A stretch of DNA of 64,000 bases from an uncultured Candidatus Saccharibacteria bacterium. GTDB lineage: Bacteria; Patescibacteriota; Saccharimonadia; CAILAD01; JADZBC01. Location of the stretch: NCBI GenBank assembly GCA_964600985.1, contig CAZRJR010000001.1, forward strand, positions 235,534 through 299,533. Reading direction: 5' to 3'. The translations under genes were made by a program, and so were the position numbers. The notes below the pieces were generated by a model. That model did no database searches. It worked only from the letters and a program-made list of their open reading frames with translations, and was not told where the DNA came from. Below, piece after piece: positions 3,745-26,617 of this stretch. Each line of letters starts with the position of its first letter. Positions within the stretch are counted from its first letter, which is position 1.

Positions 3745-4593
3745 GTGAAACCAACAGCAACGGAGCTTAAGGCAAGCTTTGCTTACTGCCGTAAGGTAAC
3801 ACGGCGTGCATCATCGACGTTTTACCTTGCTTCGCGTATGTTCGCGCCTGGGGTGCGCAATGATTTATGTGCTATCTACGCGTTTTGCCGCATTGCCGAC
3901 GATATAGCCGATGCGCCAGGGCTCAAGCAGCAAGATCGTAGGCAAGAACTTAGTTTGCTTACCCATACGCTTAAATCGGAACGCTATAGTGAGGGCGACG
4001 AACTGTGGCCGGCACTATTAGATACACTAGCGCGACATAAAGTACCCAAAACGTATTTCTATGAACTCCTGGAGGGCATGGAGCAAGACATAGCGCCTTT
4101 CGAGGTTAAGACGTATCGGGATCTGGAGAGGTACAGCTACTTAGTGGCTGGTACAGTCGGGGTTATGTGCGTGTATGTACTTGGTCAGCCGAGCCAAAAG
4201 GCACTCGCGGCCGCAAAGCAGCTTGGTATAGCTATGCAAATTACCAACATTCTGCGTGATGTCAGTGCTGATGCGGCAATAGGGCGCGTGTATTTGCCGA
4301 GTGATTTGTTAGCCCGCCACAACTTAAGTCGTAAGCAAGTATTACAAGCTCAAAACCAAGCCGCTCTCGCCCAGGTACTAAAGGAATTGGCGGCTCGAGC
4401 CGAGCAAAAGTATGACCTAGCCGCAGCTGGGCTGCCATACCTTACACCGGCTAATCGCCGACCAGTACAAATTGCCCTAAACTTATATCGGTCTATTCTT
4501 CGCCGCATAGAACAAAAGCACTATAACGTTTATAATACAAGAATACGCTTAAGCTTGGTTGCCAAGCTCATGGTAGTTGTACGAACACGCTAG
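3745..4593 (+). CDS. crtB: phytoene synthase
   Basis: Squalene/phytoene synthase signatures (YAFCRIADDIAD, ITNILRDV...D). Confidence 0.85.
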   Translation: MKPTATELKASFAYCRKVTRRASSTFYLASRMFAPGVRNDLCAIYAFCRIADDIADAPGLKQQDRRQELSLLTHTLKSERYSEGDELWPALLDTLARHKVPKTYFYELLEGMEQDIAPFEVKTYRDLERYSYLVAGTVGVMCVYVLGQPSQKALAAAKQLGIAMQITNILRDVSADAAIGRVYLPSDLLARHNLSRKQVLQAQNQAALAQVLKELAARAEQKYDLAAAGLPYLTPANRRPVQIALNLYRSILRRIEQKHYNVYNTRIRLSLVAKLMVVVRTR

Positions 4594-4607: not shown

Positions 4608-5960
4608 ATGGAGCAATCACCACAGCGCAGACATGGCATTGATGGGCTAAGTCACCGGCCTGTTTCGCCGCGTCCACAGGCTTCACGACCACCACAGATG
4701 GCCACCGAAAAACTTGTGAGCACTTCCTCGCATCGGCCAAAAGCGGTGCCTCGCAAGTATGGCATAGCAGAGCTGCCGAGTAACTCTGGGTTTGCCTTTA
4801 ACGAAGGCGTGTCTCATCCTGGTCTGCCACAGCAGCACGCACCACTACGAACTAATCAAGCCTCGAGCTTTAAACGCTTGGTTATGTATCCATTTGCTCG
4901 ACCATTCGATAACCGTATAGCACGGTTTGGACTTATCGCCACGGTGCTTGATATACGCTTCTGGCTGGTTTTGAGCCTGCCATTACTTATTCTTCGCTTG
5001 CATGAACTCGCCAAACTTGCACCCATTCAGGTGGTGCATAAGCTCAATGCGCTCCTGGTTGCCCATAATTATGGTTGGGGGGCAGCCTTGCTTGGCGGGT
5101 TGTACTTAGCGGGAGTGCTTTCGGTGCTGATAGTCGCTGTTGCCCTGCAAGTGATCACAGCCATCAAGATCCGAGCTATTGATCACCGCGTTAGTCGCGC
5201 CCATATTCTTGTGCGTCATGCGATCTCGAATATACTCAAGACTACACTCAATTGGCTCATTGACTCTACCTTTGCTCTGAGCATGATTATCCTCGCTTGT
5301 GCGGGCATCTATGGTCTCAGTATATCAACTACTCCTTGGGTGGTTATATGGCGTGATTATTTGGTAGGACTGATTGGACTAGTAAGCTTTCTAGTGCTCG
5401 GTGTGCTCTATGTGCGTCGTAAATTACAGCGGGCTATGCTCGCTACCACCCAGCTACCAGTACGATCTATTCAGGGTCGGTCACTCATGCTTGTGGTGCG
5501 TAATCTGCCCGTAAGTGCACTAGCCCTACTGCTAGCCCTCTTGCAGTTGACGGGGGCTATGGTTATTACGGCTGGAATCGGTGGCATAATTGTACATTAC
5601 TTGCCACTTACTACTACTATCCCCGGGCGTTTATGTCTGTGGCTGCTGGCTGCTATTGGTATGGGCTTGGTATGGTTAGTTACGGTCGTGTGGCAGGCTA
5701 TGCACTGGGCTGGCTTCTACCACCTCGTAGTTTTGCGTGGTAGCAAAGACACCGTGTCGGACTACCTTGTTCCGACAATGCCTTTGAAGCTACGGGTGTG
5801 GCCGGCATTGGTCGCAGCCGGGCTCACCTTGCTGGTATTTTGTACTTACGCCGGTGCAGTAATTGGGCTTCGGCCGCAGGTACGAAGTGTGGTGCAGCGA
5901 GCGAAGCAAGTTATTCCGTCCGATGCTCGTAATATCGTGCCAGGCATTGGTCAGCATTAA
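4608..5960 (+). CDS. polytopic membrane protein, function unknown (true start may lie downstream of the Pro-rich N-terminus)
   Basis: Long ORF with more than 8 predicted TM helices directly after crtB. The N-terminal 90 aa are low-complexity and Pro-rich. Confidence 0.4.
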   Translation: MEQSPQRRHGIDGLSHRPVSPRPQASRPPQMATEKLVSTSSHRPKAVPRKYGIAELPSNSGFAFNEGVSHPGLPQQHAPLRTNQASSFKRLVMYPFARPFDNRIARFGLIATVLDIRFWLVLSLPLLILRLHELAKLAPIQVVHKLNALLVAHNYGWGAALLGGLYLAGVLSVLIVAVALQVITAIKIRAIDHRVSRAHILVRHAISNILKTTLNWLIDSTFALSMIILACAGIYGLSISTTPWVVIWRDYLVGLIGLVSFLVLGVLYVRRKLQRAMLATTQLPVRSIQGRSLMLVVRNLPVSALALLLALLQLTGAMVITAGIGGIIVHYLPLTTTIPGRLCLWLLAAIGMGLVWLVTVVWQAMHWAGFYHLVVLRGSKDTVSDYLVPTMPLKLRVWPALVAAGLTLLVFCTYAGAVIGLRPQVRSVVQRAKQVIPSDARNIVPGIGQH

Positions 5961-22916: not shown

Positions 22917-24284
22917 ATGTTACGTATATACAATTCGCTCTCAAAACAAATAGAAGACTTTAGGCCGATTCAGCCCGGCCACGTGAGTCTATATAGCTGT
23001 GGGCCTACTGTGTACGACCATGCACACATTGGTAACTTACGGTCTTTTATATTTGCCGACCTCCTGCAGCGCGTTCTGCGCCACACAGAGGACTACAAGG
23101 TCACCTGGGTAATGAACATTACCGACATAGACGACAAGATGATCGAGCGGTCTAAGCGTGATTATCCAGATGATGAACCTATGACGGCGCTTGGCAAACT
23201 AGCGGATACTTATACCGATGTATTCATTGAAGACTTAGGGAGAGTTGGTGTAGCGCGAGCTGACATTGCCAAGCTACCGCGCGCTACTGATCATATTGGC
23301 GAGATGCAAACAATTATTCGCCAGTTGCTTGCCGATGGAATTGCCTATGAGGTTGATGGTAGCGTGTACTTTAGTTTGGCCAAATACGAAGCGAGCGGGA
23401 AGAAGTACGGAGTCTTGAGTGATGTCGACTTTAGTGGCCAAGCGCGGATGATAGACGACCAGGATCAAAAAGAAGGTGTGGGTGACTTTGCTCTCTGGAA
23501 GGCTGCCAAGCCAGGTGAGCCGAGCTGGCAGTTTGAGTATGAGGGTAGGCAACTGCCTGGCAGGCCTGGTTGGCACATAGAGTGCTCGGCTATGAGTACC
23601 AAGTATTTAGGACAGGTTTTTGATATTCACACTGGCGGGATTGACTTACGCTTTCCTCACCATACCAACGAGATAGCTCAATGTGGTGGCGAGATGGCAC
23701 ATTACTTTATACACCACGAGTTTTTAAATGTGTCGGGTGGCAAAATGGCTAAATCAGCCGGGAACTTCTACACTCTCACGGATGTGGGCGATGGCATGGC
23801 GTTTAGAATGCTGGTGCTCGCCGCGCACTACCGCAGTAAGATGGATTTTAATAATGAAGCACTGAGTGCTGCTCGCCAGCGGGTCAACGCTCTGCGCGAG
23901 TTTGTCCGTAAGTGCCAATATGCTACTGATTTAACTCAGAATACCGAGGTGATAGATGAGTTCCGACGATCGTTTACAACTGCATTGCGGGACGACCTAA
24001 ATACACCGCAAGCCCTGGCTGCCTTGGCTGCTCTAGAGCGCGATGGTTTGCGCGTAGATGGAAGCGTAGAGGCAGTAGCGTGGGCAGATAGGGTGCTGGG
24101 GCTTGGCCTAGTGAGTGAAGTGAAGCCATTTAGTGATCAAGAACTAGCCTTGCAGCAGTTGCGTACCGAAGCACGACTAAATAACGACTACCAGACTAGT
24201 GATAAACTGCGCGATGAATTACTAAAGCTTGGCGTGGTAGGTGAGGATCTGGCGACTGGTTCGCAATACTGGCGTAGTATTTAG
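22917..24284 (+). CDS. cysS: cysteine--tRNA ligase
   Basis: HIGN and KMAKS (KMSKS) class I motifs. Confidence 0.9.
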   Translation: MLRIYNSLSKQIEDFRPIQPGHVSLYSCGPTVYDHAHIGNLRSFIFADLLQRVLRHTEDYKVTWVMNITDIDDKMIERSKRDYPDDEPMTALGKLADTYTDVFIEDLGRVGVARADIAKLPRATDHIGEMQTIIRQLLADGIAYEVDGSVYFSLAKYEASGKKYGVLSDVDFSGQARMIDDQDQKEGVGDFALWKAAKPGEPSWQFEYEGRQLPGRPGWHIECSAMSTKYLGQVFDIHTGGIDLRFPHHTNEIAQCGGEMAHYFIHHEFLNVSGGKMAKSAGNFYTLTDVGDGMAFRMLVLAAHYRSKMDFNNEALSAARQRVNALREFVRKCQYATDLTQNTEVIDEFRRSFTTALRDDLNTPQALAALAALERDGLRVDGSVEAVAWADRVLGLGLVSEVKPFSDQELALQQLRTEARLNNDYQTSDKLRDELLKLGVVGEDLATGSQYWRSI

Positions 24285-24312
24285 GCATACTCGTAAGAAT
24301 ATGTATAAACAG

Positions 24313-24346
24313 AAAGCCGCCTTCTAAGAAGGCGGCTGACTTGTTT
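24313..24346. terminator. bidirectional rho-independent terminator after cysS
   Basis: AGCCGCCTTC/GAAGGCGGCT 10-bp stem, loop TAA, T-run downstream. Confidence 0.6.
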
Positions 24347-24384
24347 AGAGAAGGGAATCCCTAAACAAGCATGGATTGAGTCGG

Positions 24385-24488
24385 TGGTGAGGGGAGGATT
24401 TGAACCTCCGCGTAGTTTTACGACCCGAAGGCCTTCATCGCTAGGCAGGTTTTCAACCCGCTCCATTCGTCCACTCTGGCACCCCACC
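24385..24488 (-). tRNA. tRNA-like gene, 104 nt, class-II-like (anticodon loop folds as TTGAAAA by hand; identity unresolved)
   Basis: Perfect acceptor stem (GGTGGGG/CCTCACC, one G-U), D-arm with a GG motif, 5-bp anticodon stem, and a canonical T-arm (GGAGG-TTCAAAT-CCTCC). There are 35 nt between the anticodon stem and the T-arm, too long for a normal variable arm. Confidence 0.45.
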
Positions 24489-24505
24489 AGACTCAATTGA
24501 AGGGT

Positions 24506-24587
24506 GGTCAGGATCGGGGTATTCGTCTCCCCAGGACCAGTGCAGTACTAGCCAGGCTAGTAATACGCTGATACCCCGATCCTGACC
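24506..24587. repeat. 17-bp perfect inverted repeat (GGTCAGGATCGGGGTAT / ATACCCCGATCCTGACC) enclosing 48 nt
   Basis: Read directly from the sequence. Lies inside the non-coding tRNA cluster. Confidence 0.8.
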
Positions 24588-24785
24588 TGGCCGCTGCATC
24601 ACGCTCGGATTCGATTCCGAGTAAGATGCTTGATCTCGTGCGCTGCGGCGCGATGGTGGAGTCGCTACCCGATGCCAGTTGCCTGGCGAGTCGGACGACC
24701 CCGAGGACGGTTGCCCATGACCCTGTCTTTGGTCCGACCTTGGCGGGGCCGAGACATGACCATATTTTGTTGACTTCCGTCTTCG

Positions 24786-24860
24786 TCGACCCGAGAGGAT
24801 TTGAACCCCCGACCTCCAGACTAACCGCCTGGCGCTCTGCACAAGCTGAGCTACGGGCCG
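24786..24860 (-). tRNA. tRNA, 75 nt (anticodon tentatively GTT/Asn; atypical D-loop and position 33)
   Basis: Acceptor CGGCCCG/CGGGTCG, D-stem GCTC/GAGC, anticodon stem CCAGG/TCTGG, T-loop TTCAAAT. The D-loop lacks GG and position 33 is G. Confidence 0.45.
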
Positions 24861-25004
24861 TGGGCGAGAAGCGCAGGACGTTACTCCCACAAACTCTCAG
24901 TTCACGTCTGAGCGCTGACTTACAGCTTCTTCTCTGATACTCATCTTTGCTTTTGTGTTCATGCTTTCACGTCGCACATACACTACTAATTCCAATGAGC
25001 CTTG

Positions 25005-25077
25005 TGGGGGCGAGAGGCATCGATCCTCTGACTTCTGGTTCTTCACGCCAGCGCTCTGCCAACTGAGCTACACCCCC
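25005..25077 (-). tRNA. tRNA, 73 nt (anticodon tentatively GAA/Phe; unusual T-loop ATCGATG and a C31-A39 mismatch)
   Basis: Acceptor GGGGGTG/CGCCCCC, canonical D-arm GCTC-AGTTGGCA-GAGC, T-stem AGAGG/CCTCT. Confidence 0.5.
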
Positions 25078-25169
25078 TTGCCTGATCCAGCTTGCCCGTT
25101 CGGACAAAACTTACTCGCGTCACCACGAGCGGCAAGCTGGATCAGAGACGTGTGTAATAATAGCAAATA

Positions 25170-25214
25170 AAAAGCCCCCTGTCAATCACTTGCGTGATCC
25201 TGAAGGGGCTTTTG
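25170..25214. terminator. bidirectional terminator (AAAAGCCCC ... GGGGCTTTT)
   Basis: 9-bp stem with a 26-nt loop, flanked by an A-tract and a T-tract. Lies downstream of the minus-strand DEAD-box helicase. Confidence 0.55.
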
Positions 25215-25226
25215 GCAGATGGCTAC

Positions 25227-26462
25227 TTAGCGAGCTACAAAGGTAAGGGCTTTGCCCTTTTTGCCAGCGCGGCCAGTACGACCGATGCGGTGTACGTAGT
25301 CTTGGTAGGTGTTTGGTTGGTCGAAGTTAATTACGTGGCTTACATTTGGAATGTCGAGCCCACGAGCTGCCACATCGGTAGCCACAAGTACCTTGGCTCG
25401 GTTGTCTTTAAACGCCTTAAGAGCTCGCTGGCGCTGCGGTTGAGTTTTGTTGCCATGGATCGCTTCTGATGCGTGGCCACTACGACTCAAGTCTTCGGCC
25501 AGCTTTTGCACACCCCACTTGGTTTCACCAAATACTAGGACTTTTTCGAACTCAGGCTGGTCGAGAAGCTCTTTGAGTACAGCAAACTTTTCGTCCTTGG
25601 TGTTGGCTCGGATAATGTCTTGCTCTACATGGTCACTCGTTTCGCGGGTACGGACCGAGATGGTTACAGGGTCGCGCAAAAAGTCGTGAATCAGTGATTC
25701 AATTGCCGGCGTAATGGTTGCGCTAAAGCAGAGTGATTGACGCTGTGGTGGCATTTGGCCGACTATAAAGCGGATGTCGGCAATGAACCCCATATCCAGC
25801 ATTTGATCGGCTTCGTCGAGCACCAATATGCTGGTGGCATCGAGCTTTAGGTTGCCTTGCTGAATGTGGTCCTTGAGTCGGCCAGGTGTGCCAATTATCA
25901 CATGCGGCTTGCGACGCAAGTCTTGGACTTGGCGATACATATTCATGCCGCCCACACACAGCGCGCTATATATGCGCATACCCTGAGCAAAGGCACGGAA
26001 CTCGTCATTAATCTGGTTGGCAAGCTCACGGGTTGGCGCCATAATGAGTACGGCTGGCTTAGTATGAATACTTGCAAGTCGTTCGATAATTGGCAGCACA
26101 AAAGCAGCAGTCTTACCGGTGCCAGTATTGGCAAGGCCAATAAGATCCCTGCCTTCTAGAATTGGCGGAATAGCACCGTCTTGGATTGCCGACGGCTGGG
26201 TGTAGCGGCGCATAGCTATGTTACGCTTTAGGGCGTCAGACAACGCGAAATCATTAAAGCTATGCACGGGCACGAAGACTTCTTCCTTAGGCACTACTGT
26301 GACTTTGTTTACAAATTTAGCTGGGTCTATATAGGCGCCCTTTTTGCCGCCGTTGCCATAGCGTCGGCCACCACCACTGTAGCGCTTAGAGCCGCCAAAG
26401 CTTCGATTATTACTAGTACTGCGCCCACGCGAATGTGCAGGGCGTGCATATGATTGGTTCAT
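25227..26462 (-). CDS. DEAD-box ATP-dependent RNA helicase with an RG/GG-rich N-terminus
   Basis: Q-motif, AxTGTGKT, DEAD (VLDEADQMLD), SAT and HRIGRTGR motifs. Confidence 0.9.
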   Translation of the reverse strand: MNQSYARPAHSRGRSTSNNRSFGGSKRYSGGGRRYGNGGKKGAYIDPAKFVNKVTVVPKEEVFVPVHSFNDFALSDALKRNIAMRRYTQPSAIQDGAIPPILEGRDLIGLANTGTGKTAAFVLPIIERLASIHTKPAVLIMAPTRELANQINDEFRAFAQGMRIYSALCVGGMNMYRQVQDLRRKPHVIIGTPGRLKDHIQQGNLKLDATSILVLDEADQMLDMGFIADIRFIVGQMPPQRQSLCFSATITPAIESLIHDFLRDPVTISVRTRETSDHVEQDIIRANTKDEKFAVLKELLDQPEFEKVLVFGETKWGVQKLAEDLSRSGHASEAIHGNKTQPQRQRALKAFKDNRAKVLVATDVAARGLDIPNVSHVINFDQPNTYQDYVHRIGRTGRAGKKGKALTFVAR

Positions 26463-26617
26463 ACTGGCCTTTCGGATTATTATTCTAGCTTGATGAACAG
26501 CGAGAATAATAGTTCCGGAATCGGACACTTGGCTCGGTATTCACCCATGTCATATGTGACAATCTAAATATACTAACACACATAAGCTTTTTTGTCCAGT
26601 ACCAGTAGGGATATCGA

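Follow-up and report, generated by a model that had tools for sequence, protein, structure and literature searches.

A tRNA-Ser-type gene of Saccharibacteria with a copy of 16S rRNA helix 16 in its variable arm

A 64,000-nucleotide (nt) stretch of DNA from an uncultured Candidatus Saccharibacteria bacterium (contig CAZRJR010000001.1, positions 235,534 to 299,533; the whole stretch is termed the window) carries, on its minus strand at 24385-24488, a gene for an RNA that consists of a transfer RNA (tRNA) body of the tRNA-Ser type and, at the tip of the variable arm, a copy of helix 16 (h16) of 16S ribosomal RNA (rRNA). Comparison with related genomes indicates that the tRNA body has been held by purifying selection and that the rRNA copy is either selected or repeatedly renewed. 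The explanation that we favour, tentatively and at a little short of an even chance, is that the gene encodes an accessory, tRNA-scaffolded mimic of h16 and not a regular decoder. The original prediction, made from the letters of the window, had described a tRNA-like gene with an insert; it contained neither the strand of the gene, nor the rRNA origin of the insert, nor the membership of the gene in a syntenic array of irregular tRNA-like genes.

This array occupies the interval between cysS and a DEAD-box helicase gene (Table 1). For comparison, we used the corresponding intervals of genomes whose CysS is 71-76% identical to that of the window, together with one array found by a DNA scan (L029) and the window itself, which gives 12 arrays (relatives are named by locus labels such as L003). 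An orthologue of the window gene is present as the last module, beside the terminator, in nine of the 12 and is cleanly absent from L133, L156 and L160. Because three related arrays lack it, we regard the gene as accessory.

Fold and conservation of the tRNA body

The tRNA covariance model of Rfam (RF00005, gathering score 29 bits) aligned full-length from 24488 to 24385, over model positions 1-71, with 46.6 bits (E = 8.4e-7), which bears out the exact ends that had been proposed for this 104-nt gene. The encoded RNA is GGUGGGGUGCCAGAGUGGACGAAUGGAGCGGGUUGAAAACCUGCCUAGCGAUGAAGGCCUUCGGGUCGUAAAACUACGCGGAGGUUCAAAUCCUCCCCUCACCA. The model also reproduced the fold that had been drawn by hand, and not a normal class-II tRNA with a different fold: a 7-base-pair (bp) acceptor stem (GGUGGGG/CCUCACC) followed by the discriminator A, a D-arm, a 5-bp anticodon stem (GCGGG/CCUGC) closing the 7-nt loop UUGAAAA (anticodon GAA, U33, A37), and the T-arm GGAGG-UUCAAAU-CCUCC. 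Relative to the model, about 32 nt are inserted in the variable region. CCA is not encoded, the three bases next 3′ being CCG, and the division of the acceptor and T stems is 7/5 in all nine orthologues. ARAGORN called three tRNAs in the window and this gene was not among them. The program fails on all three long-arm tRNAs of the set, the window gene, L138 3963-4067 and L141 1424-1528, of which the latter two score 47.8 and 43.9 bits with RF00005, both above the threshold.

A caveat is the folding energy of the single sequence, which is unremarkable (z = -1.2; cloverleaf -32.6 kcal/mol, minimum free energy fold -38.4 kcal/mol), and the structural case therefore rests on comparison with relatives. 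We aligned the nine orthologues and one ordinary Saccharibacteria tRNA-Ser and scored 20 cloverleaf pairs. Standard pairs fill 99% of the cells, both sides have changed at 13 of the 20 pairs, and none of 500 shuffles equalled the real alignment; controls in which the alignment was slid gave pairing of only 33-50%. Between most array genomes, identity at the four-fold degenerate sites of cysS is 24-35%, which amounts to saturation (the closest pair reaches 58%). The acceptor stem of the window gene is unlike that of every orthologue at 4-5 pairs and is still fully paired. Since pairs have been kept while neutral sites are saturated, the stems, the D-arm and the T-loop are under purifying selection.

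The comparison extends to the flanks of the gene, where a helix between leader and trailer co-varies, UUGAGUC/GACUCAA in the window standing against GAAUC/GAUUC at the same place in relatives. An independent Logan assembly (L001) is identical to the window across the whole intergenic region. A 145-amino-acid open reading frame that overlaps the RNAs (24453-24890) has no match in Pfam, and we regard it as spurious. We conclude that the gene is a genuine tRNA gene of class II, that it belongs to the tRNA-Ser lineage and that its structure is under selection.

A copy of 16S rRNA helix 16 in the variable arm

It had been suggested that a 35-nt insert stands in place of the variable arm. The length was right, but a variable stem is still present, reduced to UAG/CUA in the window gene and 5 bp long in L138 and L141, the two other carriers of the insert that we identified (both genes are 105 nt). 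The stem of L138 and L141 is that of the short-armed orthologues (AUAGC-loop-GCUAU), with its loop replaced by G-AAUGAA-GACC-UUCG-GGUU-GUAAA. In the window gene, about 25 nt that copy h16 take the place of the variable-stem loop, forming a GAUGAA/GUAAA internal loop capped by GGCC-UUCG-GGUC.

The identity of this graft was established against three references, namely E. coli rrsH (405-436, GUGUAUGAAGAAGGCCUUCGGGUUGUAAAGUAC), another bacterial 16S rRNA (h16 region, GUGAGGGAUGAAGGCCUUCGGGUUGUAAACCUC) and the Rfam model SSU_rRNA_bacteria. Searches of bacterial 16S rRNA with blastn-short gave 22 of 23 identical positions for the window (E = 1.6e-5), 24 of 25 for L141 (E = 1.1e-6) and 20 of 21 for L138, with E values across the three carriers between 1e-4 and 1e-6. 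The window graft is identical to E. coli rrsH 413-432 at 19 of 20 positions, and the only E. coli genes that its arm matches are those for 16S rRNA. Positions 404-432 of the Rfam model align with window 24414-24442 in a match that is the best among 4227 families and is weak in absolute terms (9.1 bits, E = 0.24). This match has the same helix-loop-helix and includes all of the highly conserved bases (GA, GAA, UU, G, GUAAA), and the same model positions align with the arm of L141 with the same secondary structure. The predicted folds of the variable arms of all three carriers likewise share their shape with h16. No rRNA match was found elsewhere in the window, so that the hairpin sits inside a tRNA and not in an rRNA gene. 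By eye, the internal loop was also compared with a K-turn and a loop E, readings that were dropped in view of the direct homology with h16.

Among the three carriers, 20 of 23 graft positions are kept, at a divergence where the four-fold sites of cysS are only 26-34% identical (saturated) and where there are differences all along the acceptor and anticodon stems. Co-variation is seen in the apical stem of the graft (GGCC/GGUC versus GACC/GGUU). The carriers are not one another's closest relatives (CysS 73-76% identical), and L005 has a short arm although its CysS is 92% identical to that of L141. Retention at saturated divergence, with a co-varying apical stem, argues that the graft is selected or repeatedly renewed, and that it is not a neutral relic. 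When the arrays were searched with blastn-short for other pieces of 16S, 23S or 5S rRNA, h16 was the only significant match; several matches of 10-11 nt were at chance level.

tRNA-Ser ancestry, anticodon and discriminator

The D-arm of the window gene, UGCCAGAGUGGACGAAUGG, is that of ordinary tRNA-Ser genes, with a 3-bp stem containing C11-G24 and a long D-loop containing GG. A scan of reference genomes with the pattern UGCCAGAGYGGACRAAUGG matched at least 120 stretches; among the 80 loci listed, 13 were sampled, and 12 of these were standard tRNA-Ser genes while the thirteenth was the related array L029. A normal 86-nt Saccharibacteria tRNA-Ser(UGA) is among the 12. Of the possibilities first raised for the gene, an unusual class-II tRNA is one that survives. 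Its long, paired variable arm is also a tRNA-Ser feature, here over-long (35 nt, against 16 nt in a normal Saccharibacteria tRNA-Ser) and with only 3 basal pairs.

Other positions depart from tRNA-Ser. The window gene has A73 in place of the discriminator G73, which L138 and L141 retain, and GAA in place of a Ser anticodon (NGA or GCU), whereas L141 has CGA, L138 AGA and L003 GCU (Table 2). Compared with the other two graft carriers, it has A35 for G35, A73 for G73 and only 3 basal pairs in the variable stem. The combination of GAA and A73 is that of tRNA-Phe; the 4-5-nt variable loop and the D-arm of a class-I tRNA-Phe are both missing, their places being taken by the 35-nt variable region and the Ser-type D-arm. 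The loop itself is canonical (7 nt, U33, a purine at 37), whereas five of the nine orthologues have A33 or an 8-nt loop. The anticodon loop varies among orthologues, and decoding is not a constraint on the gene family as a whole.

Table 2. Anticodon loops and discriminators of the window gene and its orthologues
Gene	Loop	Anticodon	Position 73
Window gene (graft)	UUGAAAA	GAA	A
L138 (graft)	UUAGAAA	AGA (Ser)	G
L141 (graft)	CUCGAAA	CGA (Ser)	G
L003	CAGCUAA (A33)	GCU	A
L005	CAGUCAA (A33)	GUC	G
L129	CAGUCUG (A33)	GUC	G
L029	CAGACCG (A33)	GAC	G
L132	CAUCUCAA (8 nt)	none assigned	G
L131	CUCUUAA	CUU	G

If the window RNA is used in translation, it would read UUY codons, and A35, A73 and the weakened variable stem would favour charging by phenylalanyl-tRNA synthetase (PheRS) over charging by seryl-tRNA synthetase (SerRS). 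Reassignment of UUY codons was rejected, because 18 of the 19 UUY codons of the window cysS fall at conserved Phe positions. The anticodon was said to duplicate that of a conventional-length tRNA downstream; a second GAA gene does exist (25005-25077), but in the direction of transcription it lies upstream.

The tRNA array

A single sigma-70-type promoter and a single, strong intrinsic terminator bracket about 870 nt of the minus strand, and because of this arrangement we infer that the modules are co-transcribed. The promoter is the only promoter-like site in 24200-25300, and equivalent TTGACA sites occur in relatives. All 12 arrays consist of tRNA and tRNA-like modules strung on the same strand, and these modules differ strikingly between genomes: their number, their anticodon loops and their inserts vary even at 92% CysS identity (L141 versus L005). 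Some modules receive 2- or 4-nt "anticodons" from ARAGORN. In others a tetraloop hairpin stands for the anticodon arm, or a hairpin of about 37 nt is inserted in the D-loop, with the acceptor and T arms kept. The anticodon on one scaffold (GGUCCUG...CAGGACC-A) differs between two genomes, being GCC in the first and GAA in the second.

The array seems to be limited to one clade, judged at the cysS locus only. No tRNAs lie beside cysS in more distant relatives (L007 and L008, CysS 60% identical or less), and a metagenome scan with CysS returned only four distant loci, with no array. Named CysS homologues are labelled Candidatus Saccharibacteria or simply "bacterium". The wider neighbourhood in the window consists of housekeeping genes (recR, ybaB, a DedA/VTT protein, glycosyltransferases, L10/L12, dnaX, dnaB and a two-component system), and no mobile-element or toxin-antitoxin genes are present among the genes around the array. 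Permissive Rfam scans of the locus returned only tRNA, a weak end-match to transfer-messenger RNA (tmRNA) and the h16 portion of SSU rRNA; T-box, GOLLD/ROOL, RNase P, SRP and S4-leader RNAs were not found. The array is a conserved non-coding locus, unannotated in the sources examined.

Table 1. Features of the window and coordinates of the related arrays
Feature	Position	Strand	Remarks
Class-II tRNA gene, tRNA-Ser type	24385-24488	minus	104 nt; anticodon GAA; A73; no encoded CCA; last cistron of the array
Variable region of this gene	24410-24444	minus	35 nt; 3-bp basal stem UAG/CUA, asymmetric internal loop, GGCC-UUCG-GGUC; from model alignment and folds
Copy or mimic of 16S h16	24414-24442	minus	E. 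coli numbering about 406-436; blastn, Rfam SSU model
5′ leader strand UUGAGUC	24490-24496	minus	complementary to 24376-24382
3′ trailer strand GACUCAA	24376-24382	minus	pairs with 5′ leader 24490-24496
tRNA-Phe(GAA)	25005-25077	minus	normal length; first cistron; ARAGORN and Rfam, 54.9 bits
Module called tRNA-Asn(GUU)	24786-24860	minus	loop CGGUUAG, G33 for the universal U33
cysS-to-helicase intergenic region	24285-25226	minus	tRNA and tRNA-like modules; synteny in 12 distinct arrays
cysS	22917-24284	plus	converges on the array
DEAD-box helicase gene	25227-26528	minus	
Predicted sigma-70-type promoter of the array	25157-25185	minus	TTGACA, 17-nt spacer, TATTAT, TG before the -10 element; 11 of 12 consensus matches
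Predicted intrinsic terminator of the array	24305-24337 (also bounded as 24337-24315)	minus	10-bp stem, 7 GC pairs, U-run; also serves cysS on the opposite strand
Array L003	4378-5370		
Array L005	4369-5152		
Array L029	150-990		
Array L129	3869-4666		
Array L131	3872-4799		
Array L132	3875-4787		
Array L133	3869-4523		
Array L138	3869-4816		
Array L141	1335-2355		
Array L156	1580-2338		
Array L160	3797-4504		

Helix 16 copies between phage tRNA genes

We also searched IMG/VR and deposited phage genomes for the h16 hairpin. A free-standing copy lies between tRNA-Asp and tRNA-Glu in a phage array of 17 tRNAs (L150 4288-4322; IMGVR_UViG_3300028588_000021), and another lies between tRNA-Asn and tRNA-Trp in the cultured Curtobacterium phage Yappy (L161 1503-1539; PQ868972.1 7422-7458), where the basal stem has changed with compensation from GAGG/CCUC to GCGG/CCGC. 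The search of IMG/VR revealed no tRNA whose variable arm contains h16. Because free-standing copies occur between phage tRNA genes, we argue that the hairpin may be a functional unit tied to tRNA transcripts; in unrelated genomes it recurs as a unit that accompanies such transcripts.

Most viral matches to the 17-nt core of h16 were set aside as chance matches, and one (L142) as a fragment of a 16S rRNA gene; in another (L143) the core lies at the start of the contig. Longer hairpins with an h16-like tip were seen in non-coding regions of phage genomes, in L149 (2893-2940; IMGVR_UViG_2935082893_000001) and in the Curtobacterium phage Mantle (L162 about 575-655), with the same in Thatch. In Mantle, a promoter-like site downstream of the DNA polymerase gene directly precedes the hairpin.

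A possible mimic of helix 16 on a tRNA scaffold

The explanation favoured here, an accessory h16 mimic carried by a tRNA scaffold, can be set out as a series of steps. The array would be transcribed as one RNA, from which the ordinary tRNA end-processing enzymes would cut out the module; CCA would be added, and a stable, tRNA-shaped RNA would persist. Selection would act on the tRNA body and on the rRNA helix that it displays, and not on the reading of any particular codon. The h16 copy would most likely be a molecular mimic that binds the ribosomal partner of h16, and the RNA would serve as a tRNA-scaffolded decoy or handle and not as a housekeeping decoder. A tRNA-derived non-coding RNA, which had been listed among the first possibilities, also survives.

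The prime candidate for the partner, which we do not put forward as a conclusion, is the ribosomal protein uS4, whose contacts with h16 are made precisely to this internal loop and the 3′ strand. In 16S rRNA, uS4 touches h16 at nucleotides 404-406 and 410-412 and along the backbone of 425-430; deletion of 410-432 lowers uS4 binding more than 380-fold (Bellur and Woodson, 2009; PMC2665224). A decoy for a toxin that cuts 16S rRNA at h16 was also considered, and no support for it was found in the literature; the mycobacterial RelS paper concerns the anti-Shine-Dalgarno sequence and not h16.

Several points weigh against the mimic. The functional steps (transcription, processing, charging and binding) are all deduced from sequence. 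Only three graft carriers have been identified, and the graft could be a tolerated expansion that gene conversion keeps 16S-like. Stable binding of uS4 needs a five-helix junction, for which h16 alone is insufficient (PMC2665224); of that junction (h3/h4/h16/h17/h18) the window gene contains only h16. Furthermore, the three carriers keep a loop of the decoding type (Y32, U33, A36, A37 and A38), and canonical loops are found in all three of them versus one of the six other orthologues. With their Ser anticodons and G73, L138 and L141 look like working tRNA-Ser isoacceptors.

These last points lead to the alternative that the RNA is active in translation, which we consider possible and, on balance, unlikely. 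It takes two forms. The first, to which we assign about two thirds of the weight of this alternative, is a switch of identity: a former tRNA-Ser(GGA) gained A35 (hence GAA) and A73, the two main determinants for PheRS, and lost those for SerRS (G73 and a solid variable stem), so that a class-II tRNA-Phe now backs up or replaces the decaying tRNA-Phe of the array. In the second form, with about one third of the weight, the RNA continues to be charged with Ser and delivers it, at a low level, to Phe codons. The fully canonical loop (U33, A37) and the intact stems are as expected for a decoder, and the graft carriers, at saturated divergence, keep Y32, U33, A36, A37 and A38, with differences at positions 34 and 35 only. 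The window gene alone combines A35 and A73 with a 3-bp basal variable stem, while L141 and L138 have G73. In the window, the anticodon arm of the ordinary tRNA-Phe shows three lineage-specific changes, and none of the orthologues of this tRNA has so low an Rfam score. A Ser-to-Phe switch would account in one stroke for A35 and A73, for the weakness of the variable stem and for the damage to the normal tRNA-Phe. Also, tRNAs engineered to carry a hairpin aptamer at the end of their variable arm stay active in translation (PMC7590224).

Nevertheless, decoding is impossible with the loops of five of the nine orthologues (A33 or a length of 8 nt), three genomes lack the gene, and the conservation of the h16 sequence plays no part in either form. 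Arrays L005, L129, L133 and L160 contain no tRNA-Phe, so that one must exist elsewhere in those genomes. We know of no class-II tRNA-Phe, and E. coli PheRS reportedly reads variable-loop and D-arm positions that differ in the window gene. Low-level serylation faces a difficulty of its own, since Ser would land at conserved Phe positions.

A further alternative, improbable in our judgement, is what remains of the pseudogene that the original prediction had considered. A long-dead gene is unlikely, since the stems co-vary at saturated neutral divergence. Inactivation may instead have been recent, in which case a redundant accessory tRNA-Ser that acquired G35A, G73A and mismatches in the variable stem would be drifting, transcribed only by virtue of its place in the array. 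The nearest relatives that look functional share a Ser consensus from which all three window-specific changes depart; in addition, three genomes dispense with the gene, and ARAGORN rejects it. However, the graft hairpin and all four stems of the cloverleaf are intact, the loop is still canonical and the leader-trailer helix co-varies; an acceptor stem that differs from all orthologues at 4-5 pairs and is nevertheless paired argues for selection along most of the lineage.

The remaining two alternatives can be given very little weight. That the 35-nt stretch is an intron removed after transcription to leave a normal tRNA (an intron-like insertion had been among the first possibilities) is favoured by the excess length itself and by nothing else. 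The extra piece caps the variable stem and lies outside the anticodon loop, its size of about 25 nt is far below that of a group I intron (core over 200 nt), and the sequence shows no bulge-helix-bulge motif. The piece is a homologue of a helix of mature rRNA and is conserved as a hairpin, and its excision would leave no variable loop of class-I length; on these grounds the intron was rejected. An assembly chimera of a tRNA-Ser gene with 16S rRNA reads, which near-identity to a highly conserved 16S segment might suggest, is the least credible of all and was rejected, because the graft occurs in five assemblies from different samples (the same architecture is seen in the window and L001, in L138, L139 and L140 from three samples, and in L141 from a JGI sample), the carriers differ in sequence with a compensatory change in the hairpin, and the junctions fall exactly at the variable-stem tip in every carrier.

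Relation to known RNAs

Allo-tRNAs resemble the window gene in their tRNA-Ser-like body, long variable arm and non-Ser anticodons, and in their occurrence in polycistrons with other irregular tRNAs, as far as co-transcription in the window is correctly deduced (Mukai, 2017; PMC5389517). They differ in having an 8/4 or 9/3 acceptor/T arrangement and a tRNA-Sec-like D-arm, where the window gene has 7/5 and an ordinary tRNA-Ser D-arm; in their links to toxin-antitoxin or transposon genes, where the window array lies among housekeeping genes; and in that no rRNA-helix graft has been described for them (PMC5389517). Their anticodons correspond to many non-Ser codons, some irregular tRNAs can be charged and are unused in translation, and roles as suppressors or regulatory non-coding RNAs have been suggested for allo-tRNAs and for polycistrons of irregular tRNAs in Acidobacteria (PMC5389517). 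Allo-tRNAs and these polycistrons are the closest published relatives of the window gene and its array.

Other likenesses are more limited. Nematode nev-tRNAs reportedly combine class-II bodies with anticodons for class-I amino acids, and the G35A mutant of human tRNA-Ser-AGA is said to be a mistranslator that reads Phe codons. SerRS and leucyl-tRNA synthetase ignore the anticodon, so that such class-II tRNAs can mistranslate, and G35A in a Ser NGA anticodon yields a Phe anticodon. These RNAs are eukaryotic, have variable arms of normal length and carry no rRNA graft, whereas the window gene also has A73 and a weakened variable stem. Leader RNAs of ribosomal protein messages that mimic rRNA sites establish the principle of mimicry for binding a ribosomal protein; those mimics sit in mRNA leaders, while that of the window sits in a tRNA. 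With h16 itself the graft shares sequence and secondary structure, and only this helix of the five-helix junction of uS4 is represented. The recombinant "tRNA scaffold" is a laboratory tool in which a hairpin is embedded in a tRNA anticodon arm for tRNA-like processing and stability, whereas the insert of the window gene is natural and lies in the variable arm.

A long variable arm that ends in a protein-binding hairpin, the same design as in the window gene, has been built into aptamer-tagged tRNAs, which still fold and can be sequestered or recruited via the hairpin (Mukai, 2020; PMC7590224). Those RNAs are synthetic, use a 9/3 allo-tRNA chassis and display phage or other aptamers, whereas the window gene is natural and displays a copy of a ribosomal helix (PMC7590224). 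A natural tRNA that carries an rRNA helix was not found in the literature searched, which included a review of non-canonical tRNAs (PMC7609411), and that literature likewise held no report of h16 copies between phage tRNA genes. The new elements are thus the h16 graft in a tRNA and the phage h16 hairpins; irregular class-II tRNAs were already known.

Other modules of the array

The first cistron of the window array, tRNA-Phe(GAA), has defects found in no relative, namely a C31.A39 mismatch, G32 and G37, in an anticodon arm that is otherwise invariant: all six orthologues read the loop CUGAAAA. Its Rfam score is the lowest of the group, the orthologues reaching 58-74 bits. The T-loop of this tRNA starts with A54 in the window, L003, L131 and L138 (AUCGAUG, AUCGAUA or AUCAAUA). 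At the place of the tRNA-Asn-like module, relatives have 8-nt loops (UCGUCAAG) or the anticodon GCC; the GCC-bearing bodies lack what we take to be the glycine identity elements of bacterial glycyl-tRNA synthetase.

A hairpin at window 24654-24702 (minus strand; GGGGnnnn...nnnnCUCC-ACCA-UCGC) is conserved in L003, L005, L029, L129, L133, L138, L156 and L160. It has an 8-bp acceptor-like stem with G3.U70, followed by A73, an encoded CCA and then a short capped stem, with no T-loop. The stem co-varies (GGGGUCGU/GCGACUCC versus GGGGCAGU/ACUGCUCC), and Rfam returned only a weak tmRNA end-match (E = 3.7e-4). By these features, it is an acceptor minihelix of the tRNA-Ala/tmRNA type and a possible substrate of alanyl-tRNA synthetase. 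An 18-bp hairpin at 24506-24587 (minus strand; GGUCAGGAUCGGGGUAUC...GAUACCCCGAUCCUGACC, then ACC) lies where relatives have a tRNA-like gene with the acceptor GGUCCUG/CAGGACC-A, as if a tRNA module had shrunk to an acceptor-like stem.

Two spacers on the minus strand are also structured and conserved. That at 24865-24936 forms a degenerate cloverleaf with the acceptor GAGAAG/CUUCUC and a D-arm-like GCUG...GCGC, and that at 24590-24649 forms a three-way junction with the T-arm-like hairpin CUCGGAAUCGAAUCCGAG. The D-loop hairpin of about 37 nt occurs in the first module of L160 (about 4215-4255) and L005 (about 4900-4940), on the minus strand in both; the core of the L160 insert, GAAGAGGCCUUCGGGAC, resembles the 5′ half of h16, with an 11-nt exact match that is at chance level. 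Upstream of the first tRNA, a leader hairpin of L131, L132 and L156 (array RNA positions about 95-111) contains UAACACGUGAGUAA, a 12-14-nt exact match to the 5′ domain of 16S rRNA that is at chance level (E = 0.016-0.24). Its window equivalent (25113-25130) was flagged as terminator-like.

Implications

ARAGORN misses all three graft carriers and makes odd calls for other modules, so that tRNA censuses of Saccharibacteria and the candidate phyla radiation may be incomplete. Charging of the window RNA with Phe, if it occurs, would make it to our knowledge the first class-II tRNA-Phe, an alloacceptor switch caught in the act.

A wider proposal, offered as a speculation more likely to need revision than to stand, is that the gene is a natural tRNA-rRNA chimera, a tRNA-Ser scaffold displaying an h16 mimic for uS4 or another h16-binding factor, and that it belongs to an undescribed class of h16-mimic hairpins in tRNA transcripts of Saccharibacteria and of phages that infect Actinobacteria (Yappy; L149, L150). 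Through such mimics, tRNA arrays could be coupled to ribosome assembly or antitermination, which the mimics might instead subvert. If the hairpin does bind uS4 or another ribosome factor, aptamer-tagged tRNAs of synthetic biology would have a natural precedent, and a new form of molecular mimicry would connect ribosome biogenesis with tRNA-shaped RNAs, both in organisms whose genomes are minimal and in the phages of their neighbours.

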